Source of the DNA: Candidatus Nomurabacteria bacterium | GTDB taxonomy: Bacteria > Patescibacteriota > Patescibacteriia > HK-STAS-PATE-3 | Reading direction: 5' to 3' | Assembly: GCA_023898465.1 (NCBI GenBank) | Contig: CP060223.1 | Location: 256,001 to 320,000 of the forward strand | Length of the DNA stretch: 64,000 nt | In this document: in pieces, positions 16,941 through 45,615 of the stretch | Numbering within the stretch: position 1 is the first letter of the stretch | Layout of the letters: each line of letters begins with the position of its first letter | Translations under genes and position numbers: made by a program | The notes under the pieces: model-generated | What the model saw: only the letters and a program-made list of their open reading frames with translations | The model's database searches: none | What the model was told of the DNA's origin: nothing

Positions 16941-17600
16941 ATGTTAGGTTATCTTTTGCTCATTATATCGGTTGTAGAGTTTTTTATTGGCCTGTACCTT
17001 ATTTTTCGCTATGAAAAAAGCCAGGCAACAACATATTACGGTCTCTTTGCAATAAGTGTTGCGATCTATGTTGCCGCGAACGGTTTCGGATTTACCCGAG
17101 CTTCTGATAACGAGTTTATTTTTGAGCAACTTGCTTGGTTTGGCGGCTTACTTAGCGCCCCATTTATCCTTGGCTTCAGTTATAGCTTTCCTAGCCCTAA
17201 AAAATATCCCACTGAGCTATTTCCGTGGGTAATTTGGCCAGTAGTGTTATTTGGCGCAGGAATTTTTACTTCAAATATTTTCCTGGAGAAAACGTATATT
17301 TATTCCTTTGCCGAAGGCTACACTGCGCCAATCGGTGTCTTTTTCTGGTTCGCCATTGCAGTATTTGCGATGTATTGGATATGGGCAATACGAAACCTGC
17401 TGTATACGAGATTGCACACAAGCGGTTTTTATAGGAATTTTCTTACCATTGTGCTCATAGGGCTTTTTTCATCACTGCTTATTTCAGCAATTTTTGATAT
17501 TTACATTCCCTTAGTTTCAGTCACGCGCTACGGATATATTGGAGCATTATTCTCGTCTATTTGGCTGTTTACTACCGCGTATTTAATGGTGAGGAAGTAA
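16941..17600 (+). CDS. Stand-alone 7TM module, paralog 1 (histidine-kinase N-terminal 7TM-like)
   Basis: 219 aa with about 7 hydrophobic helices. Aligns by eye with the first 230 aa or so of the kinase at 23014. Ends ...TTAYLMVRK* where the kinase reads ...ISYAIIRHR and continues. Confidence 0.8.
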   Translation: MLGYLLLIISVVEFFIGLYLIFRYEKSQATTYYGLFAISVAIYVAANGFGFTRASDNEFIFEQLAWFGGLLSAPFILGFSYSFPSPKKYPTELFPWVIWPVVLFGAGIFTSNIFLEKTYIYSFAEGYTAPIGVFFWFAIAVFAMYWIWAIRNLLYTRLHTSGFYRNFLTIVLIGLFSSLLISAIFDIYIPLVSVTRYGYIGALFSSIWLFTTAYLMVRK

Positions 17601-17601
17601 G

Positions 17602-18261
17602 ATGATTGGATATATATTACTCATTATCTCAGTTGTTGAAGTAATACTCGGTTTTTATTTGATTTTTCGATATGTAAAAAGTCCAGCAACTATATATTAC
17701 GGCCTATTCGCGCTAAGTGTAGCACTCTATGTAGGTGCAAACGGGTATGGTTTTAGTCCGTTTTCAGAAAATGATATATGGCTGGAAATAATTGCCTGGA
17801 TTGGCGGGACCTTTACCGCTCCTTTTATTCTTGGCTTCAGTTACTCATTCCCTTATCCACGTAAGTCCAATAAGGAAATACTGTCTTTAGTTCTTAGTCC
17901 ACTCGTTTTTTTCTTCGTCGTAATACTTTTTTCTAATACTTTTGTAGATCATAATAGTGTTATCAGCTTTGATGAAGGATTTCAAAGACCTGTCGGGGAG
18001 TTACACTGGTTTGTATTATCAGTATTCTTTTTCTATTGGGTTTGGTCTTTTATTGAACTAGTAAAGAGTCGAAAAAAATCCGACGGCTTTAATAAGAATT
18101 TTCTTCTTATTTTAATTATAGGCTTAGTTTTTTCTTTGTTGGTTTCGGTATTTACTAACATCATTCATCCACTTGTCGATGTTTCAAAGTTAGGTTATAT
18201 GGGCCCCTTAGCCTCTTCAATCTGGCTATTTATTACTGGGTACTTGATATTGAGGAAGTAA
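17602..18261 (+). CDS. Stand-alone 7TM module, paralog 2
   Basis: 219 aa, collinear with paralog 1 (LLIISVVE..YLIFRY.KS.AT.YYGLFA, APFILGFSYSFP, SSIWLF). Starts 1 nt after the upstream stop. Confidence 0.8.
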   Translation: MIGYILLIISVVEVILGFYLIFRYVKSPATIYYGLFALSVALYVGANGYGFSPFSENDIWLEIIAWIGGTFTAPFILGFSYSFPYPRKSNKEILSLVLSPLVFFFVVILFSNTFVDHNSVISFDEGFQRPVGELHWFVLSVFFFYWVWSFIELVKSRKKSDGFNKNFLLILIIGLVFSLLVSVFTNIIHPLVDVSKLGYMGPLASSIWLFITGYLILRK

Positions 18262-18932
18262 TGAACACCTTTCATTTAGTTTTACTTTTTACACTTTTCT
18301 TTATTCACGCGACTCTCGCAATATGGATGTTGCGTAGATATGTGCAGACGCTATCCATTCGTTATTACTCAGGCTTTTTATTTGGACTAGCACTTATTGC
18401 ACTATTAAATGGTTTATTGCTGTTATTTGGCGGTCAGGAGAGTCAAACAGTCCTTCATAAGATCGGCTTTATCTCAGGCACCTTCACTTTTGTGATGTTC
18501 TTTATGTTTAGTAAGTACTTTCCAATTTCTACTGCAAGACCAAACTCCCGCGACATTCTTTTTTGGGTAATTCCGATTACATTTTTTATTCCATTCATAC
18601 TTTTTAATCAGCAGTTTATCCAGTCTGTGATTATAGAAAATGGAATAAGTAAGCCTACATTTGGAGTCTGGTATACACCATTTATGTTAGTTTTGGCCAC
18701 CTTTGTTCTGGGGGCTATCTATAATCTCATACAGAAATATAAAATAACCACTGAACTTGAAATTAGGAAGAACATTAGAGACATTACGGCAGTATTTTTC
18801 GTATCAGGACTCCTTGGCTTTTTGTTGGACGTTGTGTTGCCAAGGTTTAATGTTTATACGGCACATTACTTTGCCATTGAATCTTCACTTTTTGTTGCGC
18901 TAACTACTGCAATTATTATTGCAAAGAAGTAA
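18261..18932 (+). CDS. Stand-alone 7TM module, paralog 3 (divergent)
   Basis: 223 aa with the same helix layout. TAATG overlap with paralog 2. Ends ...AIIIAKK*. Confidence 0.75.
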   Translation: MNTFHLVLLFTLFFIHATLAIWMLRRYVQTLSIRYYSGFLFGLALIALLNGLLLLFGGQESQTVLHKIGFISGTFTFVMFFMFSKYFPISTARPNSRDILFWVIPITFFIPFILFNQQFIQSVIIENGISKPTFGVWYTPFMLVLATFVLGAIYNLIQKYKITTELEIRKNIRDITAVFFVSGLLGFLLDVVLPRFNVYTAHYFAIESSLFVALTTAIIIAKK

Positions 18933-18933
18933 G

Positions 18934-19605
18934 ATGAAAGAGTTTCTCATCATTGCAAATTATCTGGTTGGAATAGGGGAGTTGATGCTCGCTGGATATT
19001 TTTGGAAAACAAACAGCGGCAGCGCAATTCGGAAGGTGATGGTGTTGTTGGCGTTTTCGACTGGTATGTGGGTCATTTTTACCGGAACCTTTACCTACCG
19101 CTGGATTTTGCTTGATTACTTTGATCTCGGCATATCATTTGTATATTTCTTTGGAATTTTGTTCCTTACCGCCTTACTTCATTTAGTAATTCTCTTTCCT
19201 CACAAGATTTTCCCGTTTGATAGGCTACATACAGTTTTGTTGTATATTCCAACACTCATATTAGGTTTTGCCGCTTTTACTCCAGCGATAATTAAAGAAA
19301 ATATCACTCCGTCGAGCGGGTATACCACAAGTTATCCCGGACCAGCACATTGGATGTTTAATAGCTATCTTTTTCTCATGTATGCAATGGTGATAATCCT
19401 ACTCATTGTTAAGATCAAGCGTTTTGATGGATTTAGCAGAGATAACGCAAAAACTTTGCTTTGGGGTATTATTTTAGGCGGCCTACCCATCGTTTTCTTA
19501 GATTTGGTTTTGACAACTTTGGGCATCTACCCAAATGCTGCCGTTGCCAGCCTTTTCACAGTTGTCTGGCTTGGGTTTACTACTTACATAATTGTACGGA
19601 AATGA
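18934..19605 (+). CDS. Stand-alone 7TM module, paralog 4
   Basis: The ATG at 18934 lies 1 nt after the paralog 3 stop (ORF track start is 18919). Ends ...TTYIIVRK*. Confidence 0.75.
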   Translation: MKEFLIIANYLVGIGELMLAGYFWKTNSGSAIRKVMVLLAFSTGMWVIFTGTFTYRWILLDYFDLGISFVYFFGILFLTALLHLVILFPHKIFPFDRLHTVLLYIPTLILGFAAFTPAIIKENITPSSGYTTSYPGPAHWMFNSYLFLMYAMVIILLIVKIKRFDGFSRDNAKTLLWGIILGGLPIVFLDLVLTTLGIYPNAAVASLFTVVWLGFTTYIIVRK

Positions 19606-20288
19606 ACGGAGAAATAGTATTTTTTGATTTAATTTTACTTAGCGTTGTTGGATTATTAGAATTAGCCTTTGGGATTTATTTAATAGTCCGTTATGTGAGG
19701 ACAAGTTCGATAGTATTTTTTGCACTTTTCGTTTTCTTTCTTTCTTTGTGGGTGCTTACAAATGCGGCTGCTTTCGTAATACCAATACATAATGTCTTCT
19801 TTGATATTGATTCAAAGTTGAGTTTTGTTTTTGCAATATTACTTTTTCCAGCGCTATACTTATATGTAATTAATTTTCCCATCCCTACAATATTAATAAA
19901 TTGGCGTTTAATACTTTTTGTGTTTACTGCGCCAATACTTCTTAGTACAATGATTTTAGGGTCGGGAACGGTTGTATTTGGATTTGATAAATTGATAGAG
20001 AATCAGCCAACTATATTTGGAGAAGCTTTTTGGGCCTATTCTTTTTATATGTTGTTCATGTATGCAATTATTTTATTTGAATTAATAAGGCAGATTAATA
20101 AGTCCAAGGGTTCTCACAGATGGTATGCACAAATTTTATTTTTTGCTGTTTTCATTTCTGGCGCAATAGGGCTATTATTTAATCTTGTTCTGCCTTCGAT
20201 GTTCGATATTAGAATTGCTTATTGGATAGCCCCATCTAGTTCAATTATTTGGCTTGCTCTTGTTTGGTGGGCGACGCAGAGGAAATAA
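19602..20288 (+). CDS. Stand-alone 7TM module, paralog 5
   Basis: ATGA overlap with paralog 4. The ORF track start at 19461 runs inside paralog 4. Ends ...SSSIIWLALVWWATQRK*. Confidence 0.75.
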   Translation: MNGEIVFFDLILLSVVGLLELAFGIYLIVRYVRTSSIVFFALFVFFLSLWVLTNAAAFVIPIHNVFFDIDSKLSFVFAILLFPALYLYVINFPIPTILINWRLILFVFTAPILLSTMILGSGTVVFGFDKLIENQPTIFGEAFWAYSFYMLFMYAIILFELIRQINKSKGSHRWYAQILFFAVFISGAIGLLFNLVLPSMFDIRIAYWIAPSSSIIWLALVWWATQRK

Positions 20289-20290
20289 TT

Positions 20291-20959
20291 ATGGATTATG
20301 GTGTATACTTATTATTAGTTATTGCGGGCCTAGAACTTTGGTTGACAATATACATATTTACTCGCTACCAAAGAACAAAAGCTATTTTTTTCTTTGGACT
20401 CTTTACTGCTTGTGTGACTGGATGGGTGCTAACTAATTCTATTCCGCTTCTTTTTTCCTATTCAAGTTGGCAATCTGATTTTTTGCAACGCCTCTCGTTT
20501 TCTTTTGCTGCATTTATTTTTCCTTTTCTTTATTATTATATTCTTTTACATCCATTTCCAAGCATTGATATCAACAAGCGATTCATATTATTCACATCCC
20601 TCCCGGCCTTCTTTGTTTCTATTGCCACTCTCTTTGATAAAAACTTTGTTATAGGATTCTATGATACCTCAGTAAGGGCAACAATATACGGCGACTCTTT
20701 TTGGATGTATGCGGTAGTTATGTTGCTATTTGCAATTCTTATTCCTGTGGAAATAATTTTAAAAAGAAGAAGACTGGATGGATATTATCGCTACCAATTC
20801 AAATTATTATTCAGCGCCTATTTGTTTTCAGCGGCAGTAGGATTACTAATTAATTTAATATTGCCATATTTTTTCGACTTAAAAATTAACTATTGGCTTG
20901 GGCCCGCGTCATCGATTATTTGGGTGAGTATGGTTTGGTGGGTTATTAATAGAAGGTAA
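20291..20959 (+). CDS. Stand-alone 7TM module, paralog 6
   Basis: The ATG lies 2 nt after the paralog 5 stop. Closest to paralog 5 (..ASSIIWVSMVWWVINRR*). Confidence 0.75.
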   Translation: MDYGVYLLLVIAGLELWLTIYIFTRYQRTKAIFFFGLFTACVTGWVLTNSIPLLFSYSSWQSDFLQRLSFSFAAFIFPFLYYYILLHPFPSIDINKRFILFTSLPAFFVSIATLFDKNFVIGFYDTSVRATIYGDSFWMYAVVMLLFAILIPVEIILKRRRLDGYYRYQFKLLFSAYLFSAAVGLLINLILPYFFDLKINYWLGPASSIIWVSMVWWVINRR

Positions 20960-20981
20960 TGTTTAATTGCGATTTTCAAAA

Positions 20982-21641
20982 ATGACAATAGGACATGTAG
21001 TTGAAGAATTTAAAAGTCGGTATATTAAAAGACAACTAGATCATAATTTTATTGTTTTAGAGACTCAAAATAACAACCAACTAAATTTATCATATAGATT
21101 AAGATACGAAGTATATTGTCTAGAATGTAAATATTTAGACGTGAATAATTATCCCAATAGGTCTGAAAAGGATGAGTATGATGATTGTTCAATACATTTC
21201 ATCGCAATAAATAAAAAGACAAAAAATGTTGTTGGCACAATTCGACTTATTAAACGCACTAATAGGAATTTGCCAATAGAGCATGATTTTGGAATTTCTC
21301 TGAATGGATCAATTAGTTCTAAAAAAGTTGTGGAGATTTCTAGACTAGCGGTTGATAAAAAATTTAGGAAGTCGAGTTTAAAGCATCCAAGTATTATGTT
21401 AGGTTTATTAAAAGCATGCTATAGATACGCCGAAGAAAATGGAATTGCAATGTTTGTAGCGGCAATAGATCAAAATGTATATAATATGTTAAAAAAGTTT
21501 CGTTTTTCATTTAATTTATTAGGGGAACCAAAACATTATATGGGTTCAATCTCAGTACCCGTGTTAATTGATATCGAAAAAGAATCGCAGTGGTTAAAAA
21601 TAGTAAATCCTGGACTATGGACATTTCTTTCAAGCAATTAG
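20982..21641 (+). CDS. GNAT-fold N-acyl amino acid / acyl-homoserine-lactone-synthase-like acyltransferase (FeeM / PEP-CTERM-associated acyltransferase-like)
   Basis: LSYRLRYEVYCLECKYLD, IHFIAI...VVGTIRLI, VVEISRLAVDKKFR and MFVAAID follow the pattern I recall for the LuxI-related Acetyltransf_5/N-acyl amino acid synthase family. The ORF track starts at the TTG at 20967; the ATG at 20982 is preferred. Confidence 0.55.
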   Translation: MTIGHVVEEFKSRYIKRQLDHNFIVLETQNNNQLNLSYRLRYEVYCLECKYLDVNNYPNRSEKDEYDDCSIHFIAINKKTKNVVGTIRLIKRTNRNLPIEHDFGISLNGSISSKKVVEISRLAVDKKFRKSSLKHPSIMLGLLKACYRYAEENGIAMFVAAIDQNVYNMLKKFRFSFNLLGEPKHYMGSISVPVLIDIEKESQWLKIVNPGLWTFLSSN

Positions 21642-22276
21642 CTCATAAAATTGTATTATTCTATTTAAGACGGGCTAGCCACAAAAAATACCTAACATTT
21701 AGCTTTAGCGATCTTATTATACTCTGTCCCCCAAACGTGTTCCCGCCTAATTCGTTTACCACTGACCTAATGGCTAAGTGGCTAGTAAACGAAGAGATGG
21801 AAGGTAAACAGGTTTTAGAGATGGGTTGTGGAAGTGGATACATTTCGATTATTGCCGCACGAAAAGGGGCAAAAGTAATTGCAAGCGACATCAGCCCTAT
21901 CGCGGTTGATGCCGCAAAAATCAATACCATAATAAATAAGATAAAAAATGTCGAATGTTATTGCTCGGACTTATTTTCTAACTTAGAAGGAAAGTTTGAT
22001 TTAATTCTCTTCAACGCACCTTTTTTTCATGGAGAACCCACTTCTTTATTAGATAACAATTGGATGAGTAAGGATGGGGAGGTGGTCAGTAAATTTTTTA
22101 AAGACGCAAGAGAATATATTAATCCAATGGGGAAGGTAGTTATTACTAGTTCGACTCTAGTTAATCAAGATGCTCTGAAAATATTAATTAAAGAAAGCGG
22201 ATTTAATATTGAAAACGTGAAAACAAAAAATATTATTATTGAAAAATTTTTCTTGTATGAATGTAGAGCTTTTTAA
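21617..22276 (+). CDS. Class I SAM-dependent methyltransferase (HemK/PrmC-like amino-methyltransferase pattern)
   Basis: Motif I is VLEMGCGSGYISI, the acidic loop is ASDIS, and motif IV is FNAPFF (an NPPY-like variant). The start is ambiguous (GTG at 21590 or ATG at 21617) and overlaps the upstream gene. Confidence 0.7.
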   Translation: MDISFKQLAHKIVLFYLRRASHKKYLTFSFSDLIILCPPNVFPPNSFTTDLMAKWLVNEEMEGKQVLEMGCGSGYISIIAARKGAKVIASDISPIAVDAAKINTIINKIKNVECYCSDLFSNLEGKFDLILFNAPFFHGEPTSLLDNNWMSKDGEVVSKFFKDAREYINPMGKVVITSSTLVNQDALKILIKESGFNIENVKTKNIIIEKFFLYECRAF

Positions 22277-23021
22277 TAGAAATCAACCATTTATAACTAA
22301 AAAAGAACAAAAAATTCTCACAAAACAGAAAGTTTGTTTTATTGGATGTGGTCTTGCAAGTCAAGCCGCACTCCTTATTGCCAGGACAGGTATTGGAAAA
22401 ATAGTACTTTGTGATGGAGACAAGGTCGAGTTGAGTAATCTTAACAGGCAAGCATTTGACATTGGTGATATTGGAGAAAACAAAGCAGAAAGCTTAATGA
22501 GAAAGATATTAAGCATCAATTCAAATATTGAAGTGGAGCAGTATCCGGTTTTTTTAAAAAAATCGATTATTTCAAATGTAATAAAAGATTCAGATATTGT
22601 AGTGAGCACAGTTGATGCGGGTCCTTTATATTTTGAAATTCAGGAATATATTAATAAAAAAGGCATTATGGGAATATTCCCCATGAATATTGCCTTTGGA
22701 TCACTCGTATTCGTATCAAAAAATGGAAAGGGTGATTTTAAATCGTTATTTGGGGAGAAATTACCTGAAAATAATTCTGAATTTTTTTATCAACTTTACA
22801 ATAAACTTAAACAAAATGTACCAAGCTATTTATCTCCTCATATTGAAATCTTATTAAGTGGATTTAAAACAAACAGTCCAATTCCACAGCTAGGATTAAC
22901 GACTTTACTTACCGCATCTTTGATTACTGAGATAATACTGGCTGGGAACAGGGCTGAGCAATTATTGTTAACTCCAAGATTCTATTATTTTGATATTCGT
23001 GAATTCGTTCGAAATGGATAA
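22257..23021 (+). CDS. ThiF/MoeB/HesA-family E1-like adenylyltransferase
   Basis: KVCFIGCGLASQAALLIARTGIGKIVLCDGDKVELSNLNRQ carries the canonical ThiF nucleotide-binding signature. The protein is about 254 aa with no rhodanese or CxxC tail. It overlaps both neighbours. Confidence 0.75.
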   Translation: MNVELFNRNQPFITKKEQKILTKQKVCFIGCGLASQAALLIARTGIGKIVLCDGDKVELSNLNRQAFDIGDIGENKAESLMRKILSINSNIEVEQYPVFLKKSIISNVIKDSDIVVSTVDAGPLYFEIQEYINKKGIMGIFPMNIAFGSLVFVSKNGKGDFKSLFGEKLPENNSEFFYQLYNKLKQNVPSYLSPHIEILLSGFKTNSPIPQLGLTTLLTASLITEIILAGNRAEQLLLTPRFYYFDIREFVRNG

Positions 23022-25785
23022 ATTGCTAATCCCACAAAATTTAGCACTTATTATATTGCTCTTCGGATATTTAAGTCTGATAATTCTTCTTTTGAGACGC
23101 GAGAACACAAGTAGTAGATTATTTGGTGCTACCGTTATTACTCTCTCTCTTTGGATATTATCAATTTTACTTTTAAATATCAGCTCCTCAAAAGAAGAAA
23201 TTTTATTCTTTTCGCGATCGTCATTTATCGGGCCAATTATTCTCATACCAACATTCCTTCTTTTTTCTTGGTATTTTCCGAAAAAAACTATACATCTAAG
23301 GAAAAGTATTATTATTGTCGTTTCTTTAACGGCATGCTTCTTTTTAATTGCGACGTTTACGCCGTATGTAATTCAAGATGTCACAATAAAAGTAGGTGAA
23401 GGAGTCAGTCTAACCTATCAACTTGGAACACTATATTTTTTCCAATTTATTTTTTTAGCATTCTCATTACTTTATTCTTTTTTTATTCTTTATAAAAAAT
23501 ATAAAAAATCAAAAGGCCTAGAAAAATTACAAATTAGATATCTTTTTCTTGGCACCGTTATTACTGCAGTATTGACCTTGAGTACTAACGTAATTTTACC
23601 AATTTTTAATTTTTCATCTCTTGCTGGATTTGGCCCTCTTAGTACTCTATTTCTCTTATTTTTTATTTCATATGCCATCATCCGCCACCGCCTCCTCGAC
23701 ATCCGTCTTGTTATCACGCGTTCCTTAATTTATTTTTTCCTTATCCTGTTCGTCGCAGGATCATTTACTGGAATTACCTTACTCGCAAAGTTATTATTTG
23801 AAGAATTTGTTGGTGAAATAACCGCTACAATACTTGTTTCTCTCATCATCGTTATTGGTTTCGAGCCATTGAAGCGATGGGTCTCTCGTTCTACTGACTC
23901 GGTTTTTTATAAGGCAAAAATTGACTACGCTGATGTGTTGCGGGAAATCAGCGAAATTATTAACCGTGAAATTGTCCTGGATCCGCTCGTCACCTCCATC
24001 AGCGCCACGCTTGAGAGTAGGCTCAAGCTCAAGCACGCGGGCATTGCATTGAAAAGCGCCAAGGGGGATTTTGTTGAATACATAAACCACGATCACTTTG
24101 ATCCCAAAACCTTTTCCAGCCGATCCGGTATGATCGGATTCTTACGTTTCACATCTCGTATCACCATTTTAGAATCGCTCGAGCGCAAAATTCAGGACAC
24201 GAGCGAAGGGGACGAATTAAAAGAGTTGAAGCGATCGCGCGAGGAAATGGAAACGAACCACATTGCCTTAGCTGCTCCGATTGTGGCGCAAGGCAAATTC
24301 AACGCAGTCCTCATCCTGGGGCCGAAACTTTCCGGTGATAGCTTCTCGACCGAAGAGTTGAAGATGATTGAAACGTTGACTCCGCAGATCGGATCAGCGA
24401 TTGAGAAATCCATGCTCTTCGAAGAGGTGAAGAACTTCTCCAGTCAATTAAAGGTGAAAGTTGATGAGGCGACAAAGGAGTTGAAAGAGCGCAATCGTTT
24501 CCTTGGCGCTTTGCAGGATATCACGAGCACCATTACGCACTCTCTTGATTACAAAAAAGTAGGACAGGACATTGTGGACGGAGTAGCCAAGAAGCTCGGT
24601 TACATCGGTGCCGTGCTCCTGCTCTATGATCCAAAGACTGGCCAGTCATGGGCTGAGGCAATTACGCAAACGCCGGTTACTCGCGCGGCAATGAAATTAC
24701 TGCCCAAGCCGGTGAACGAATACCATGGGCACGTGGATGAGAATTCCATGACCGACCAAGTTATTTTGACTGGTGAAATGCGCGAAAGTGATTCACTAGC
24801 TGAATTCTTAGCACCGGCCGTGCCTAAAGCTTTTTGTTTCGCCATGCAGAAGTTGATTCGCGCAAAGTATATTGTGGCAGTGCCAATCTATGCCGAGGGT
24901 GAAATTCTCGGTGCCTTGGTTTTTGTGCTCGGGAAGAAGAAAGAGGAGATCAGTAGTCAGGAGCGGGCTATGATGATCGCTTTAGGTGACCAGGCCGGAA
25001 TCGTGCTGCACAATATTAAACTCTTTGATCGCATCCAGGATACGAATAAGCAGTTGGAGCAGGCGAATGAACACTTGAAGCAGCTTGATCAAGCTAAGTC
25101 GGAATTCGTCTCCATTGCCTCGCACCAATTACGCACGCCGATGACTGGCATTATGGGCTATCTTTCCATGATGGTGCAGGGGGATTTCGGTAAAATGGAG
25201 CCGGAGCACACCAAACTGCTGACTGAATTGTTGAGTGAGAGTCAGCGCATGATTCGTCTCATCAACCTCTTCTTGAACGTCTCAAAGATTGAGTCAGGTA
25301 AGATGACGATTAACAAGCAGCCGACGCAGATTAAGGATCTCATTGACCAACAGATTAAGGATCAGAAAAAGCCAGCCGAGGATAAAGGATTGGTGCTGAA
25401 AGTGGAAGTTGATAAAGAGCTGCCGATAATTGAAGCTGACGGTGATAAGCTCATGAACGTGGTGCAGAACCTGATTGATAACGCTATCAAATATACAGAG
25501 CGGGGAAGCGTGACTGTTCGCGCCTTTCAGACCGATGGCCATATCCAGGTAGAAATTCAAGACACTGGCGTTGGTATTAAGCGCGAAGATGTGCATGAAC
25601 TCTTTGGTAAGTTTGTGCGCGGGTCTGGCATTGCGCAGATCAATCCTGATGGCTCCGGTCTCGGACTCTTTATTGCCAAGTCAATTGTGGAAATGCACGG
25701 CGGTAAGATTTGGGTAGAATCAGAAGGTGAAGGGAAAGGTACTAAATTCGCATTCACGATACCAATTACACAGCCGAAAAAATGA
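23014..25785 (+). CDS. Sensor histidine kinase: N-terminal 7TM module + GAF-like regions + HisKA + HATPase_c
   Basis: About 230 aa of 7TM region, then long soluble GAF-like regions. H-box FVSIASHQLRTPMT, N-box NLIDNAIKYT, G-boxes DTGVGI and GSGLGL. The ATG at 23014 overlaps the ThiF stop by 8 nt. Confidence 0.9.
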   Translation: MDKLLIPQNLALIILLFGYLSLIILLLRRENTSSRLFGATVITLSLWILSILLLNISSSKEEILFFSRSSFIGPIILIPTFLLFSWYFPKKTIHLRKSIIIVVSLTACFFLIATFTPYVIQDVTIKVGEGVSLTYQLGTLYFFQFIFLAFSLLYSFFILYKKYKKSKGLEKLQIRYLFLGTVITAVLTLSTNVILPIFNFSSLAGFGPLSTLFLLFFISYAIIRHRLLDIRLVITRSLIYFFLILFVAGSFTGITLLAKLLFEEFVGEITATILVSLIIVIGFEPLKRWVSRSTDSVFYKAKIDYADVLREISEIINREIVLDPLVTSISATLESRLKLKHAGIALKSAKGDFVEYINHDHFDPKTFSSRSGMIGFLRFTSRITILESLERKIQDTSEGDELKELKRSREEMETNHIALAAPIVAQGKFNAVLILGPKLSGDSFSTEELKMIETLTPQIGSAIEKSMLFEEVKNFSSQLKVKVDEATKELKERNRFLGALQDITSTITHSLDYKKVGQDIVDGVAKKLGYIGAVLLLYDPKTGQSWAEAITQTPVTRAAMKLLPKPVNEYHGHVDENSMTDQVILTGEMRESDSLAEFLAPAVPKAFCFAMQKLIRAKYIVAVPIYAEGEILGALVFVLGKKKEEISSQERAMMIALGDQAGIVLHNIKLFDRIQDTNKQLEQANEHLKQLDQAKSEFVSIASHQLRTPMTGIMGYLSMMVQGDFGKMEPEHTKLLTELLSESQRMIRLINLFLNVSKIESGKMTINKQPTQIKDLIDQQIKDQKKPAEDKGLVLKVEVDKELPIIEADGDKLMNVVQNLIDNAIKYTERGSVTVRAFQTDGHIQVEIQDTGVGIKREDVHELFGKFVRGSGIAQINPDGSGLGLFIAKSIVEMHGGKIWVESEGEGKGTKFAFTIPITQPKK

Positions 25786-39633: not shown

Positions 39634-39666
39634 ACGTAGCAATGGAAGAATTATTAAAGTAAAAGA

Positions 39667-42600
39667 ATGGACTCTGCCCCATTAACACTACAAACGAAGA
39701 CACTGCAGAGGTCTTCCGATCTAAATAATTACAGACTCTATCGCGCAGCTCTTGAATGGGAGTTGATTGATCCTATTGTCATAGAAGACCGGGATGACAT
39801 GCATTCCGAAAGTAGTTGGCGTGATCGTCTTGAGCCGTATCATCATCAAGTAACTAACCTAATAACTTTTTGTCGTCGCCTACCTGTTACTTTACTGGCG
39901 GATGATGTCGGGTTAGGAAAAACAATTAGTGCTGGCCTAGTTTTAAGCGAGTTAATTTCGCGCGGGAGAATTTCAAAAATATTAATAGTTTGCCCAAAAA
40001 TACTTCGAGATCAGTGGAAAGAAGAATTGGAAATAAAGTTCCGAATTCCGTCCACAATTGTGACAGGAAGAGAATTAATTACGGCAAAGCCTCCTGAAGA
40101 ACCAGGAGCGGTAATTACCACATACAATACGGCCAGACTGTATTTAGATAGAATTGACCAGAATGGTTTTGAAATATTGATACTTGATGAGGCGCATAAA
40201 TTGCGGAATCTATATGGTGTTGACCCAACACCTCAAGTTGCAATTAAATTCCGTAAAGCTCTGGCTGACCGGATGTTTAAGTACGTATTAATGTTAACTG
40301 CAACGCCGATCCAGAACAGACTATGGGATCTCTACTCGTTGGTTGACTTATTAACCGTTGCACGCGGCCATGAAAATCCCTTTGGAACGCCAGGTATTTT
40401 TGCGAGAAAATTTATTGCAGATAGTCGCACACAAGCGCGTCAGCTTAATCCGGAGATGCGGGATGAGTTTCGCTCAATTATTTACGGTTATATGTCTCGG
40501 GTTCGTCGTGGAGATGCAAAACTCCACTTCCCAGAGCGGGTAGTACAGTTGCATAAAGTTGACCCAACACCAGAAGAATTGCAGTTGATCGGTGTGGTCG
40601 GAAAATCTATACAACAACTGAATGCGCTTACACAAATTGTAATCCTCCAAGCTTTGGTGAGTAGTCCAGAAGCGCTAATAAAGATGTTAGAAGGAATGGC
40701 TAAAAAAGGAACCGTACCGCGTGAGGTGTTGGCGAACGTTAAGGAATCAGCCAAAGAAATTCAAATCACTACAAAACTAAAAGGTTTGGGCGCGTTAGTT
40801 GAAAAACTTAGAAAGGAGCAACCCAATACTTGGCGGGTGGTAGTTTTTACAAGATGGCGAGAAACTCAAACAACTATCGAAACTTTTCTTGAAAAGCAAG
40901 GAGTAAAATGCGGCTTGATAAATGGCGATTCAAGTAAGCGAAATCAGGAAACAATCCAAAGATTTAAAAAAGACTTACCAGACATTAATGTAATTATTTC
41001 TACTGAAGCAGGTTCGGAGGGCGTTAACCTTCAGGCCGCTAATGTTTTGGTTAATTACGATCTCCCCTGGAATCCAATGATAGTGGAACAAAGAATAGGT
41101 CGTATTCAAAGACTTGCTTCTAATTATGCAAATGTTTCTATTTTTAATATTGTTTTGCAAAATACCTTTGAAGAATATATTGTAGGGCGCTTGATGGAAA
41201 AGTTGCAGATGGCTTCTCATGCAATTGGGGATATTGAAGCACTATTGGAAGCATCCGGCATTGATGAAGGTGAAGAAAATGGCTCAAGTGGTTTTGAAGA
41301 AAAAATTCGCCAGTTAGTAGTTGCATCTTTAGCTGGAAAAGATGTTGAGCAGGCAACTCGTAAAGCTGAACAGAGTATTTCAGAAGCTAAAACAGAATTA
41401 GACCATGAAGAAAAGAACATTAATGCTTTACTTGGGGGGATGAGTGATTCTCTAGATTCTGGTCCAAGATGTCCGAAGCTTCCTCAAACTACTAAGTCGA
41501 TGGATGTCCGTGATTTTACTACGGCTGCTCTTATGAGCTTAGGCGCGGAACTACATCCAAAAAAGGATGGTTTATTAGTTTCACAACTTGCTGGGAAAAA
41601 AGAATTAATCCGATTTGATAATAACACTCTGAGCAGTGAAGAGGAGAGTGTCTTATATGCACCGGGAACTTCAACTTTTGAACGCTTAGTCCATAAAGTT
41701 GCAAATGTAGGAAAACACATTGTTGAAGACCTTGATAAAAACCCCCAACAGCAAATTGAGAAAGTAAGTCGTCAATGGGTCGAAAGTTTTGGCGGAGACT
41801 TCGAAAATGTAACGGTAGAGGACGTTTCTCGATGTTTTGCAGGAGTAGCAATAATTCGTGCAAGATCAACAGTAGCTCACGATAGTTATGAGCGTCTCAT
41901 TGAGGTTTCGTGCGCTCCCACTGAGCATTTCAGTTTTGTGACAAGAACGGGATTGGAACCCATCGGAGACTATATTGAAAATCCGACATCTGTTGGTGCG
42001 CTTTCAGAAAAATTAATTGAAAAAGCCAGCCAAGACTCGAGTATTCTTGAGTTCTGTAGATTTTATTTAGAACGAAGATCTCAAGAAATTGCCTCCGCAG
42101 GAAATGACGAAAGAAAAAAGAAAAAGCTTGAGGATGAGTTTACGCCCCGTCTTGAATTTTCCCTAGTCGGTCTTGAGGGCAAGGTTCATCGGATAGTTAA
42201 AAATCAGGTCTCTTATAGAATTGAACGTGAGGGCCAATACAAAAGTACCCTCATGATAACCCCCTCTTCTGGGCAAGTTGATATGCCGGGGATGGGACAA
42301 TGCATGAAAACAGGTAAGACTGTACCGAGCGATTGCTTAGCAAAGTGCGAAATAAGCGGACTTATAGTATTGCGGCATTTTCTTGATCAATCAGAGATCA
42401 GTAATCGACTGGCGCTCCCTGAGCACATCGTTTTATGTACGTTAAGCAACAAGCGAGTGCTAGCGGACGAAGCTATAAAATCAGATGTTACGGGCAAACT
42501 AGTCGCAAAGAAGTTTTTAAAAACATCTTCTCTGAGTGGCAAATTCGCTGAACCACAGTTCATTAACACTTGTGAGTTTACAAAAACAGAAGTTCTGGAA

Positions 42601-43194
42601 AGCGAAATTGCGGTCAGCCAGATTTCAGGAAAAAGATATCGCATTGATGAGCAACTTAAATCCGCAGTTTCAGGAAAACTAGGCCATCGACAAGAATTTG
42701 TAGCAAGTAGTATTTCATCAGCCCCACTTCTTGAAGAAGAAGCCATTCGTTCGGTCACTGGAAAATTTTGTGCACCAATGGAAGCGAGGCCCTGCACTTG
42801 GAGTGGTCGAAAGTGTCACCCCGAAGACCTTAGGACTTGCGAGTTGACCGGAGTCCAAATTCATTCAGAGTACGTAACGCTCGAACCACCAATTCGTTTA
42901 GAAACCCTAAATAATCTTTTGAATGGCACGAGGAGCAAATCTGACAAATTGGAAGTATGGCCTTCACTTTCAAATAGCGTTACAGCTTTATTAAAAGCAA
43001 AACGTTGTAAAATTGAAACAGCAGAAGTTTCACCTAGTGACGATATTTTGGCCGCTTCTATAGAGCTTCGAACTTTTCTAGGCCTGCGCGTGAGTCACAT
43101 TGGCGTACTTTATTCAATAAAGGATGGATCCGTAGTCGGGCGTGTTGCTAGAGGCAAGCGTGGTGATAAGGGCTGGAATCAAACTAAGAACTAA
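39667..43194 (+). CDS. SNF2-family helicase/translocase with a long C-terminal extension containing 15-residue repeats
   Basis: Motif I LADDVGLGKT, motif II LILDEAHKLRN, motif III LMLTATPIQN, helicase-C STEAGSEGVNLQ and QRIGRIQRL. About 650 further aa follow. AT-rich relative to the flanks. Confidence 0.85.
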   Translation: MDSAPLTLQTKTLQRSSDLNNYRLYRAALEWELIDPIVIEDRDDMHSESSWRDRLEPYHHQVTNLITFCRRLPVTLLADDVGLGKTISAGLVLSELISRGRISKILIVCPKILRDQWKEELEIKFRIPSTIVTGRELITAKPPEEPGAVITTYNTARLYLDRIDQNGFEILILDEAHKLRNLYGVDPTPQVAIKFRKALADRMFKYVLMLTATPIQNRLWDLYSLVDLLTVARGHENPFGTPGIFARKFIADSRTQARQLNPEMRDEFRSIIYGYMSRVRRGDAKLHFPERVVQLHKVDPTPEELQLIGVVGKSIQQLNALTQIVILQALVSSPEALIKMLEGMAKKGTVPREVLANVKESAKEIQITTKLKGLGALVEKLRKEQPNTWRVVVFTRWRETQTTIETFLEKQGVKCGLINGDSSKRNQETIQRFKKDLPDINVIISTEAGSEGVNLQAANVLVNYDLPWNPMIVEQRIGRIQRLASNYANVSIFNIVLQNTFEEYIVGRLMEKLQMASHAIGDIEALLEASGIDEGEENGSSGFEEKIRQLVVASLAGKDVEQATRKAEQSISEAKTELDHEEKNINALLGGMSDSLDSGPRCPKLPQTTKSMDVRDFTTAALMSLGAELHPKKDGLLVSQLAGKKELIRFDNNTLSSEEESVLYAPGTSTFERLVHKVANVGKHIVEDLDKNPQQQIEKVSRQWVESFGGDFENVTVEDVSRCFAGVAIIRARSTVAHDSYERLIEVSCAPTEHFSFVTRTGLEPIGDYIENPTSVGALSEKLIEKASQDSSILEFCRFYLERRSQEIASAGNDERKKKKLEDEFTPRLEFSLVGLEGKVHRIVKNQVSYRIEREGQYKSTLMITPSSGQVDMPGMGQCMKTGKTVPSDCLAKCEISGLIVLRHFLDQSEISNRLALPEHIVLCTLSNKRVLADEAIKSDVTGKLVAKKFLKTSSLSGKFAEPQFINTCEFTKTEVLESEIAVSQISGKRYRIDEQLKSAVSGKLGHRQEFVASSISSAPLLEEEAIRSVTGKFCAPMEARPCTWSGRKCHPEDLRTCELTGVQIHSEYVTLEPPIRLETLNNLLNGTRSKSDKLEVWPSLSNSVTALLKAKRCKIETAEVSPSDDILAASIELRTFLGLRVSHIGVLYSIKDGSVVGRVARGKRGDKGWNQTKN

Positions 43195-43195
43195 T

Positions 43196-44686
43196 ATGAA
43201 CCCTCTACTTACAAAAACCGATTATCTTCTTTACCGGGAATGCCCAAAGAATGTTTGGTATAAAATCCAAAAACCTGAATTGTATGCTACATCGGAGCTA
43301 ACAGAGTTTGAAAAATCGATAATGGAAACAGGTAATGAGGTTGAAAAGATTGCAAGGCAACTTTTTCCAAACGGGGTGTTAGTAACTTATCGTGATGCGC
43401 GCGGTCAAGCTGAGACACAAAAGCTATTGGCGGAGAACAAGGATGTGATTTTTCAGCCAGTTTTTGTCAAAAATAACTTTTTGGCTGCTATTGATGTTCT
43501 ACAAAAAGAAAAGAATGGCAAGGGCTACAATGTTTACGAAATAAAATCGACTAGTGATGTAGATAAGAAAACACATTTTCACGACCTAGCATTTCAAGTA
43601 AACGTTCTCAGAATGACAGGCCTGGGAATTAATAAATCATTTGTCATTCATCTAAACTCTGAATATATTCGAAAGGGAGAAATTGAGCTGGATCAGTTAT
43701 TTAAAGTATCAGATGTGACGGATGAAGTAGAAAGTCTTTTACCGGATGTTGCGACTGAGGCGGAAGAAGCATTGAAGTATATTAGCCAAACTTCTGAACC
43801 AGAGGGGTACTGCTGCTGTATTTATAAAGGTCGATCAAGGCATTGTTCAACCTTTCAGCTAGCGAACCCCGAAGTACCCGAATATAGTGTCCACGATATT
43901 TCTAGGATAGGGGTAAGCAAGGCTAAATTAAAAGAGCTAATTGACGGAAGTATTTTTCACCTGGACAAGATTCCGCCACACATTAAATTAAGCGAAATTC
44001 AACAAGGTCAAGTTGAAACCTATAAATTGAATAAGGTATTAGTAGATAAGGAAAGAATTGCGGAAGAATTTAGTGGTCTCACATTCCCACTTTATTTTCT
44101 TGATTATGAAACATTTCCATCAGCAATACCAAGATATGATGGCTTTTCACCATATAAACAAATTCCGTTCCAGTATTCTGTTTACAAACTAGATTCAGTC
44201 GAGAGTGAGCCAACTCATTTTGATTTTTTGTACTCTGGTCCCGAAGACCCCAGCAAGCACTTTGCCGAGTCTTTAAGGGAACATATCGGGGATAAAGGCT
44301 CGATCATCGTTTGGCATAAAGACTTCGAGTGTGGCAGAAATAATGAAATAGGTAGTCGAATTCCTACTTCGAAGGCTTTTTTTGACTCTGTTAATCAGCG
44401 AGTATACGATCTCGAAGACATTTTCAAGAAACAATACCACGTTCATCGAGATTATAAGGGAAGCACATCTATTAAAAACGTATTGCCTGTTTTAGTGCCA
44501 GAATTAACGTATAAAGACCTTGAAATTCGTGATGGTGGCAGTGCAGCGGATAGTTGGGACAAAATAATTAGTGGTGTATATAACGAGACAGAGAAAGAAA
44601 AGGTAATAAAAGATTTAAAGATTTATTGTGGTCTTGATACATTTGCAATGTATGCTATTTGGAATTGCTTGAACAAGCTACTCTAA
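43196..44686 (+). CDS. DUF2779-like dual nuclease (N-terminal Cas4/RecB-like PD-(D/E)XK with Cys cluster + C-terminal DEDD-type exonuclease-like half)
   Basis: The ATG lies 1 nt after the SNF2 stop. YRECPKNVW ... AAIDVL ... VYEIKS ... GYCCCIYKGRSRHC gives a D..ExK motif plus four Cys. The C-terminal half has YFLDYET, WHKDFE, and YCGLDTFAMY. Confidence 0.65.
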   Translation: MNPLLTKTDYLLYRECPKNVWYKIQKPELYATSELTEFEKSIMETGNEVEKIARQLFPNGVLVTYRDARGQAETQKLLAENKDVIFQPVFVKNNFLAAIDVLQKEKNGKGYNVYEIKSTSDVDKKTHFHDLAFQVNVLRMTGLGINKSFVIHLNSEYIRKGEIELDQLFKVSDVTDEVESLLPDVATEAEEALKYISQTSEPEGYCCCIYKGRSRHCSTFQLANPEVPEYSVHDISRIGVSKAKLKELIDGSIFHLDKIPPHIKLSEIQQGQVETYKLNKVLVDKERIAEEFSGLTFPLYFLDYETFPSAIPRYDGFSPYKQIPFQYSVYKLDSVESEPTHFDFLYSGPEDPSKHFAESLREHIGDKGSIIVWHKDFECGRNNEIGSRIPTSKAFFDSVNQRVYDLEDIFKKQYHVHRDYKGSTSIKNVLPVLVPELTYKDLEIRDGGSAADSWDKIISGVYNETEKEKVIKDLKIYCGLDTFAMYAIWNCLNKLL

Positions 44687-44690
44687 ACCT

Positions 44691-45392
44691 ATGAGCTTTC
44701 TTAAGATTTTTAGTGATGATTCTAAAGACAAGCCAAAAGAAAATGATAGTCGGAAACCTGAATGTCCATACTGTCAGGGCGTTTTAGTTAAAATTCCTGC
44801 TAGAAAAACAAAATGTTTTCACTGTGGGAAATATATTTTTGTACGAACACAGACAAAGGACAGAAAGCTCGTTTTGGTTACTGAAGAAAATTCGGCCGCG
44901 ATAGACTCTGAATGGGAGTCAAAACAAGCCGCTACGATCACTTCATTGGTGGAGAAAGTAGATTTTACAAAGAAAAAAGAAGGTCTGCGCGAAGGGTTTG
45001 GGGACAAGGAACCCTCCGTTAGTGACATAAAGTGGGGCTTGTGGAACAAGAGGCTTCAGGAAGCAATGAAACGCAATGATTTTTCAGAACTTTCAGGAAT
45101 ATATTTTCAAATGGCTCTGCGCTTGCACGAAAGTGGAAAAGACAGCTTTAAACTTCAGGGCCAGGCTCAAAAAATGTTTTTGTTTAAAGAAAAGCAAAGC
45201 GGTGTTGTTTCTAGCGTAGAGGTTTTTTCTAGAGATGGCTGTGAAGAATGTAAGAAAATAAACGGAAAGAAATTTGTTATTTTTGAAGCACTAAAACTCA
45301 TGCCACTACCCGTTCAATCCTGCACAAACAAACTGAATAAGAATGCGCCCAATGGTTGGTGTCGATGCACTTTTCTTCCTTTTATAGATTAA
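44691..45392 (+). CDS. Hypothetical protein with N- and C-terminal zinc-ribbon-like Cys motifs
   Basis: CPYCQG-x17-CFHCGK at the N-terminus. CEECKK ... SCTN ... GWCRCTF at the C-terminus. The middle is predicted helical. Confidence 0.5.
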   Translation: MSFLKIFSDDSKDKPKENDSRKPECPYCQGVLVKIPARKTKCFHCGKYIFVRTQTKDRKLVLVTEENSAAIDSEWESKQAATITSLVEKVDFTKKKEGLREGFGDKEPSVSDIKWGLWNKRLQEAMKRNDFSELSGIYFQMALRLHESGKDSFKLQGQAQKMFLFKEKQSGVVSSVEVFSRDGCEECKKINGKKFVIFEALKLMPLPVQSCTNKLNKNAPNGWCRCTFLPFID

Positions 45393-45546
45393 GACTTTGC
45401 CACCAATACTTTTGTTTCGGTCGCTGAGCATCCACCCTTTTTATCCCCCTCTGCCGATCTTCTAAAAAGAAACGGGAATTTAATCACGTAAAAAATAAAG
45501 AGGACCCATTATAACCCCTTGCCTCCGTCATTCGCGAACGACGGGG

Positions 45547-45575
45547 TTGACAGGGCTTTTTTGTTATACTATTCT
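45547..45575 (+). promoter_or_regulatory. Putative sigma70-type promoter of the hrcA operon (TTGACA-N17-TATTCT)
   Basis: A consensus -35 sits 17 nt from TATTCT. CIRCE begins 5 nt downstream. Confidence 0.4.
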
Positions 45576-45579
45576 TGTT

Positions 45580-45606
45580 TTAGCACTCAAATATTGAGAG
45601 TGCTAA
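45580..45606 (+). promoter_or_regulatory. CIRCE operator (HrcA binding site)
   Basis: A perfect TTAGCACTC-N9-GAGTGCTAA inverted repeat lies 10 nt upstream of the hrcA start. Confidence 0.9.
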
Positions 45607-45615
45607 TTCAAGCCC

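Follow-up and report, generated by a model that had tools for sequence, protein, structure and literature searches.

The window analysed here, a stretch of 64,000 nucleotides (nt) from a Candidatus Nomurabacteria bacterium (GenBank assembly GCA_023898465.1, contig CP060223.1, positions 256,001 to 320,000), contains an island of three genes with a low guanine-cytosine (GC) content, the second of which encodes a protein of the DUF2779 family (PF11074). This protein is a family member predicted to be catalytically intact, with two nuclease domains in one polypeptide. Its gene directly follows that of an SNF2-family ATPase, and other loci show that the SNF2 subfamily in question preferentially travels with dual nucleases. 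The two proteins probably form a coupled helicase-nuclease module in a mobile island that degrades DNA, with defence as the likelier purpose and end processing for repair as the main alternative.

A DUF2779 protein with two nuclease domains

The nuclease gene is a single open reading frame (ORF) of 496 amino acids (aa), with an ATG at 43196 and a stop codon at 44684-44686 in the ORF list. The gene and its parts are as follows, in window coordinates:

43196..44686 (+), DUF2779-family dual nuclease gene, from the ORF list, the PF11074 match, homologues and the AlphaFold model
43196..43870 (+), Cas4/RecB-like PD-(D/E)XK domain (aa 1-225), with motif I G46..E50, D100, E115-x-K117 and D130/Q134
43241..43243 (+), C16, N-terminal candidate iron-sulphur (Fe-S) ligand
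43811..43846 (+), C206-x-C208-x8-C217, candidate Fe-S ligands by homologue conservation
43871..44080 (+), tentative helical linker (aa 226-295) with a helix-hairpin-helix-like stretch (HDISRIGVSKAKLKELI)
44081..44683 (+), DEDDy 3'-5' exonuclease domain (aa 296-496), with ExoI D303-x-E305, ExoII H374-K-D-F-E378 and ExoIII Y477-x3-D481

An alternative in-frame GTG lies at 43142, 54 nt 5' of the ATG. The public call of the gene (L173:6137-7663) uses an upstream start, which yields 508 aa and a 35-nt overlap with the SNF2 gene. We prefer the ATG at 43196 over the public start, as the homologue alignment places the start there in 22 of 22 close homologues.

The protein is a typical, ordinary member of DUF2779. 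It matches PF11074 with 123.5 bits (cut-off 23.3, E 8e-36) over aa 300-425, covering all 126 profile positions. In a set of 5.8 billion proteins, 2358 of the 8000 candidates scored were DUF2779 homologues at E<=0.001, and the window nuclease matches 7613 cluster representatives (50% identity). Nearly all of these representatives are both ~470-500 aa long and collinear with it from end to end (query residues ~4-495). The N-terminal nuclease, which lies outside the reach of the Pfam model, is also collinear with DUF2779 members (alignments A1 and A2, end to end). Close relatives in Patescibacteria and Margulisiibacteriota carry the NCBI name "DUF2779 domain-containing protein".

An original prediction, made from the sequence alone, had read the N-terminal half as a Cas4/AddB-like Fe-S nuclease and the C-terminal half as a DEDDy exonuclease, and both fold assignments stand. 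Conservation was scored in an alignment (A2) of 56 homologues with 31-94% identity, in which K7, D100, E115, K117, D303, E305, P312, E378, D405, S425, K427, Y439, Y477, C478 and D481 are invariant. As the catalytic residues are invariant in homologues down to 31% identity, the motifs behind the prediction are not chance resemblances. Three of them are present as described: D...E-x-K (AAIDVL, VYEIKS) corresponds to D100, E115 and K117, D-x-E in LDYET to D303 and E305, and Y-x3-D in YCGLDTFAMY to Y477 and D481. The central acidic motif WHKDFE is also present, with the correction that the conserved acid is E378 (56/56), D376 being variable and mostly replaced by Ser or Thr.

In the PD-(D/E)XK domain, E50, D100, E115 and K117 make up the predicted metal site. 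The early cysteine noticed in RECPKNVW is C16, a cysteine in 50 of the 56 homologues. A CCC-x8-C cluster exists as proposed (C206-C208 and C217), although its middle residue is not part of the conserved set: C207 is retained in five homologues, compared with 33 for C206 and 52 each for C208 and C217. In the close subfamily C16, C206, C208 and C217 are all invariant, and other DUF2779 branches show a C-x6-C-x-C arrangement or have lost cysteines, which agrees with the mollicute case discussed below. The four cysteines are placed where Cas4, AddB and Dna2 hold a [4Fe-4S] cluster, and they may likewise bind Fe-S.

Resemblance to Cas4 (SSO0001, 4ic1; Pcal_0546, 4r5q; Geobacter Cas4-Cas1, 7mi4) extends to the fold, the catalytic triad and the placement of four cysteines. 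Cas4 contains an Fe-S cluster and degrades single-stranded DNA as a 5'-3' exonuclease (references in Hudaiberdiev et al. 2017). Unlike Cas4, the window protein has no CRISPR-cas context, spaces its cysteines differently and is fused to a second nuclease. It matched neither PF01930 nor TIGR00372, Cas4 family models remaining below their cut-offs; among the 56 homologues, 15 match Cas_Cas4 and one matches PDDEXK_1 in Pfam.

The C-terminal domain has the RNase H-like fold of the exonuclease clade. Its ExoII motif takes the form (N/H)-K-x-F-E378, in which Glu replaces the Asp of N-x2-(F/Y)-D, and D405, S425, K427 and Y439 are further invariant residues of this domain. RNase_H_2 is matched by 25 of the 56 homologues and the 3'-5' exonuclease family PF01612 by three. 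In the linker, R237 and G239 do not vary within the close subfamily and the model shows helices; the Pol lambda fingers domain PF10391 is weakly matched in only 3/56 homologues.

Structure model and relationship to TM0106

An AlphaFold model based on 23 close homologues had a mean predicted local distance difference test (pLDDT) score of 74.6 and low confidence near the cysteine cluster. As it was mediocre, it was replaced by a model from a more diverse alignment (pLDDT 95.3, predicted template modelling score 0.90). Foldseek returned Cas4 (4r5q) as the top match with both models. In the model, D100 follows strand 95-98 (strands 95-98/101-104) and E115/K117 lie on strand 111-116. The first strand of the RNase H-like sheet (299-308) carries D303 and E305, E378 opens the helix that follows strand 369-372, and Y477 and D481 are in the last long helix. 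These are the canonical catalytic sites of PD-(D/E)XK and DEDDy folds. Searching the PDB by sequence, with the protein alone as well as with a profile of 56 sequences, brought up no relevant relative, and only structure comparison and profile-profile comparison linked the nuclease to known folds.

The profile-profile comparison (hhalign, alignment A6) paired DUF2779 with the TM0106 family (TIGR03491; COG2251; PDDEXK_1 and RNase_H_2) with a probability of 99.2% and an E-value of 2.8e-19 over 444 columns that span both domains. The original prediction would have fallen had the catalytic residues failed to align with a nuclease family; they match TM0106 column by column, as listed here (window/TM0106):

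N-terminal domain: C16/C14; D100/D99; E115-x-K117/D113-x-K115; Q134/Q141
Cysteine cluster: C208/C216 and C217/C219 (the first two cysteines of C-x2-C-x5-C)
C-terminal domain: D303/D322, E305/E324; E378/E388; D405/D419; K427/K439; Y477/Y481, D481/D485

The two families are thus homologous over their full length, and TM0106 also has the same SNF2 partner, beside which it replaces DUF2779. It differs in having C...C-x2-C-x5-C, QxxxY and D-x-K where DUF2779 has E-x-K. TM0106 members exceed the thresholds of PDDEXK_1, RNase_H_2 and TIGR03491, with 222-250 bits on the last for SNF2-adjacent proteins (cut-off 97.45 bits), whereas the window protein had no TIGR03491 match at E<=1. By these profile comparisons, DUF2779 and TM0106 are homologous but distinct families.

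Earlier descriptions of the family

Majorek et al. (2014) assigned DUF2779, as their family F.17, to the RNase H-like superfamily, within its 3'-5' exonuclease clade, and reported its co-occurrence with a DUF83/PD-(D/E)XK domain. The Mycoplasma homologue MMSYN1_0389, which is quasi-essential in JCVI-syn3.0, was described from HHpred as a Cas4-like and DEDDy fusion (mSphere 2026). As these two studies had predicted the fusion in silico, the core finding of two nucleases is correct without being new. A DUF2779 transposon mutant of Mycoplasma bovis has also been recovered in a cell-culture growth screen.

Mollicute DUF2779 proteins (MMSYN1_0389; Ureaplasma UU173 family NF045869) share with the window protein the Cas4-like N-terminus, the DEDDy C-terminus, the D...E-x-K triad and the D-x-E...E...Y-x3-D residues. 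They are longer (~650 aa) and have only two of the four cysteines, all of which are present in the window protein, and the latter scores 75 bits on the UU173 model (cut-off 225). The window gene lies in a mobile SNF2 island, whereas the mollicute genes belong to a minimal-genome core.

A PHROGs search gave no match for the nuclease. As its one match in PADLOC was a weak one to a Cas4 profile (aa 12-182, E 4.6e-7, 28.5 bits), it is not among the defence components that this release catalogues.

The SNF2 partner and the island

The nuclease gene is the middle one of three closely spaced genes:

39634..45615 (no strand), low-GC three-gene island between a glycosyltransferase gene and hrcA, from GC contrast
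39667..43194 (+), SNF2-family ATPase gene, 1175 aa, with Pfam SNF2-rel_dom and Helicase_C
44691..45392 (+), gene for a small Cys-rich, zinc-ribbon-like protein, 233 aa, third gene of the island

GC content is 0.416 in the SNF2 gene (39667-43194), 0.376 in the DUF2779 gene (43196-44686) and 0.387 in the third gene (44691-45392), compared with 0.50 in both flanks, the right one being an hrcA-grpE-hsp20-dnaK cluster. A single nt separates the stop codon of the SNF2 gene (43192-43194) from the nuclease ATG, and four nt separate the nuclease stop from the third gene. The island of SNF2 ATPase, dual nuclease and zinc-ribbon protein is compositionally foreign, tightly packed and probably horizontally acquired. 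No flanking direct repeats or att-like sites were found, and there is no recombinase inside it. Promoter and terminator scans gave results at or below shuffle expectation.

The SNF2 protein consists of a motor (aa ~55-520) with intact motifs in translation (GLGKT, DEAH, QRIGRIQR), followed by a C-terminal domain of ~600 aa. Its best solved relatives are the SsoRad54-like 1z63 and RapA; for the C-terminal domain, sequence comparison with the PDB gave no match and Pfam no assignment. This domain contains repeats of the form S-x-[VI]-[ST]-G-K...(E/Q)F (window 42300-42900, aa ~880-1080), and the ~180 extra residues of a gammaproteobacterial orthologue (L038:4744-7002) are more copies of the repeat. 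DISARM DrmD, BREX BrxHI, Zorya ZorD and Dpd DpdE are the best matches of the SNF2 protein in the defence library (E 1e-54 to 1e-63), although it falls far under the cut-offs: 215 bits against 610 or 950 for DrmD, 171 against 500 for DpdE and 73 against 1500 for ZorD. Zorya ZorD also joins an SNF2 motor to a nuclease (PADLOC description). The island differs from DISARM, BREX, Zorya and Dpd in lacking their other components and in encoding its nuclease separately, and this nuclease is of a different type.

The third-gene product is 100% identical to H6760_01435, reached threshold for no family, and has homologues in only seven clusters. Besides the window, it occurs with DUF2779 in L001, on the downstream side, and in L171, where an SF1 helicase, the zinc-ribbon protein and DUF2779 follow one another with a 4-nt overlap. 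In L169 and L170 a homologue stands beside a helix-turn-helix gene and a recombinase, without DUF2779. With so few homologue clusters and two contexts that lack DUF2779, we rejected the third gene as a constant partner and treat the zinc-ribbon protein as an optional accessory.

Association between the SNF2 subfamily and dual nucleases

The original prediction had coupled the dual nuclease to a translocase, and this proposal was examined from both sides. On the helicase side, 194 metagenome loci were confirmed to encode the SNF2 C-terminal domain; we took the best 80 of these, which left 69 non-redundant loci (for the tally, the L133 and L166 groups were re-read from longer duplicates). A DUF2779-type gene is adjacent in 12 of these and a TM0106-type gene in 17; 22 have neither despite enough flank, and 18 are too short to tell. 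A dual nuclease is adjacent in 29 of the 51 informative loci, and the spacing in paired loci is usually <= ~120 nt or overlapping. The SNF2 subfamily thus preferentially travels with dual nucleases. Within the metagenome loci L089-L168, it pairs more with TM0106 than with DUF2779 (e.g., L110:7911-9422 (-) and L161:7918-9426 (+)). The TM0106 gene is often convergent rather than co-directional and overlaps the SNF2 stop codon, and long forms add an SF1 helicase (L129:31-3615 (-)).

On the nuclease side, among the 80 best genome loci of DUF2779, an SNF2 orthologue lies directly upstream in three: metagenome-assembled genomes (MAGs) of Uhrbacteria (L010), Giovannonibacteria (L025) and a gammaproteobacterium (L038). 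Identity to the window SNF2 protein is 56-74% in these, C-terminal domain included. SNF2 and DUF2779 diverge in parallel, with identities of 72-74% and 68-69%, respectively, falling to 56% and 43%. The proposed coupling is therefore strong when viewed from the SNF2 protein, whereas it concerns only a minority of DUF2779 genes. Fusions also speak for the link, namely those of DUF4391 with DUF2779 (P0144), of DUF2779 with DUF2726/restriction endonuclease (P0139) and of a TM0106 nuclease with an SF1 helicase (L129).

An incomplete literature search found no description of the SNF2/dual-nuclease pairing. Hudaiberdiev et al. (2017) described recurrent links between Cas4-like proteins and helicases in defence contexts (UvrD fusions, COG1205), with no mention of SNF2 or a DEDD domain.

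Other neighbourhoods of DUF2779 genes

The neighbours of DUF2779 genes are very heterogeneous, and no family occurs in more than ~11 of the 80 loci. A single obligate partner gene was rejected, as none appeared in a census of 139 immediate neighbours and 11 large upstream proteins. In five loci (L037, L049, L009, L015 and L058) the gene is preceded in the same direction by Hhe/PDC-S37-like SF1 helicase-nucleases; the Hhe-like assignment by PADLOC, which was tested on L037 only, has an E-value of 4.5e-290. Other upstream neighbours are ResIII helicases (L070, L074), an AAA_13 ATPase, an Eco57I-type enzyme and PIN-TPR proteins, and a copy from Margulisiibacteriota is flanked by Gabija and Vsr/RE/Dcm genes. 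Further neighbours include RmuC, a Y-family polymerase, ExoVII and RuvX.

About one quarter of the sampled patescibacterial loci have a neighbourhood that looks like core genome, with DsbA, an ExoX-like RNase_T exonuclease, rpoD and dnaG. The same neighbourhood (L016, L017, L018, L028, L029, L035, L050, L055 and L060) also holds an RNase_H_2-type exonuclease of ~191 aa, so that up to three DnaQ-fold exonuclease genes lie within a few kilobases.

Possible roles of the SNF2-nuclease pair

We favour a module in which the SNF2 motor would find its target DNA, translocate on it and present the nuclease with DNA ends or single-stranded regions, by handing them over or exposing them. The Cas4-like domain, stabilised by Fe-S, would thread and trim 5' strands while the DEDDy domain trims 3' strands, so that both strands would be destroyed. 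The original prediction had likewise envisaged degradation from both polarities. The polarity of each nuclease, this bipolar degradation, the coupling to the SNF2 protein and the biological role are all proposals drawn from the homologies and gene contexts above. The purpose of such a module would most likely be defence against incoming DNA, which we favour because of the mobility of the island, the defence-island company of its closest relatives and the fusions. A more specific proposal, which we hold only tentatively, is that the SNF2 subfamily with its repeat-containing ~600-aa C-terminal domain and an interchangeable DUF2779 or TM0106 nuclease could be an undescribed mobile two-gene anti-phage or anti-plasmid system, with the zinc-ribbon protein as an optional accessory.

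Several observations weigh against this picture. SNF2 enzymes translocate on duplex DNA without separating the strands, and how such a motor would feed single-strand nucleases is the main mechanistic gap. The cysteine spacing (C16...C206-x-C208-x8-C217) differs from the canonical C...C-x2-C-x5-C of Cas4 and AddB. The island encodes no methyltransferase or other device for telling self from non-self, PADLOC v2 contains no model for a dual nuclease of either the DUF2779 or the TM0106 type, and we know of no biochemistry on any DUF2779 protein. To these are added the three in 80 genome loci with an upstream SNF2 gene, a 94%-identical DUF2779 copy that has no adjacent SNF2 gene, and the core-like neighbourhoods. 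As MMSYN1_0389 is quasi-essential and does without the four-cysteine set, at least part of the family probably has a housekeeping role in DNA metabolism.

These last points lead to the chief rival, which we regard as rather unlikely for the window locus: a housekeeping repair or recombination nuclease whose substrates would be ends, flaps or damaged strands, as for AddAB/RecBCD, Dna2 or MrfA-MrfB, with the SNF2 protein as a repair motor and the defence neighbours incidental. The core neighbourhoods and the quasi-essentiality in Mycoplasma are what favour it, joined by the RmuC, Y-family polymerase, ExoVII and RuvX neighbours and by the M. bovis mutant. The window copy, however, is located outside the core neighbourhood, in a low-GC island, its nearest relatives occur in differing defence-rich or mobile contexts in different phyla, and the partners of the family include Hhe-like anti-phage helicases. 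Known repair assemblies offer partial parallels. AddAB/RecBCD, Dna2, WRN and DinG-exo, which are among the structural matches, combine a motor with an Fe-S PD-(D/E)XK nuclease (AddB, Dna2) or a DEDD exonuclease (WRN, DinG) for work on ends. Their motors are unwinding SF1/SF2 helicases, whereas the window partner is an SNF2 duplex translocase, and none has both nuclease types in one chain. The helicase-exonuclease operon MrfA-MrfB of Bacillus subtilis, compared by description, differs in that MrfB is a DEDDh enzyme without a PD-(D/E)XK domain. MrfA is a DEXH-box helicase and not an SNF2 enzyme.

It is improbable that the nuclease stands alone and that the two proteins, independent of each other, merely reside together in a variable island. 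The heterogeneity of DUF2779 neighbours would fit such independence, as would the near-identical copy without SNF2 and the 22 informative SNF2 loci without a dual nuclease. Against it stand the 29 of 51 informative loci that do have one, usually closely spaced or overlapping, the parallel divergence of the two proteins, the 1-nt gap in the window and the existence of fusions between helicases and dual nucleases. We give next to no credence to a role as an accessory of CRISPR adaptation, in which the protein would combine Cas4 with a DnaQ-like trimmer of prespacers, as Cas4 and Cas2-DEDDh do. The protein stays below the cut-off of every Cas4 family model, and no cas1 or cas2 was seen in any neighbourhood inspected; for the window locus this role was rejected, there being no array in the 64 kb and no cas genes.

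Other features of the window

Just 5' of hrcA (45616), a perfect CIRCE-type inverted repeat (TTAGCACTC-N9-GAGTGCTAA, 45580-45606) is preceded by a promoter-like site, TTGACA-17-TATTCT (45547-45575). For the hrcA-grpE-hsp20-dnaK cluster, this repeat is the ordinary HrcA operator. A second low-GC region (16941-25785, GC 0.33-0.41), whose genes were labelled by eye, begins with six tandem paralogous genes for multi-pass membrane proteins of ~220 aa (16941-20959). On their 3' side lie an ORF of ~224 aa that we guess to be acyltransferase-like, methyltransferase-like and ThiF-like genes, and next a 931-aa histidine kinase with a hydrophobic start that looks multi-pass.

Significance

DUF2779 comprises more than 7,600 clusters at 50% identity, and one of its members is quasi-essential in a minimal cell. 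The assignment of folds and residues provides targets for mutation in each part of the protein, namely D100 and K117, D303 and E305, and the cysteines C16, C206, C208 and C217. The pairing with SNF2 is the most interesting lead, as it names a specific partner and a two-gene cassette that can be tested. To our knowledge, the defence systems of Patescibacteria have been little studied. If the pair serves defence, it would be an additional helicase-nuclease system, one that is present in this group and equipped with a two-polarity effector. If it is instead a repair module, it could explain how DNA ends are processed in reduced genomes.

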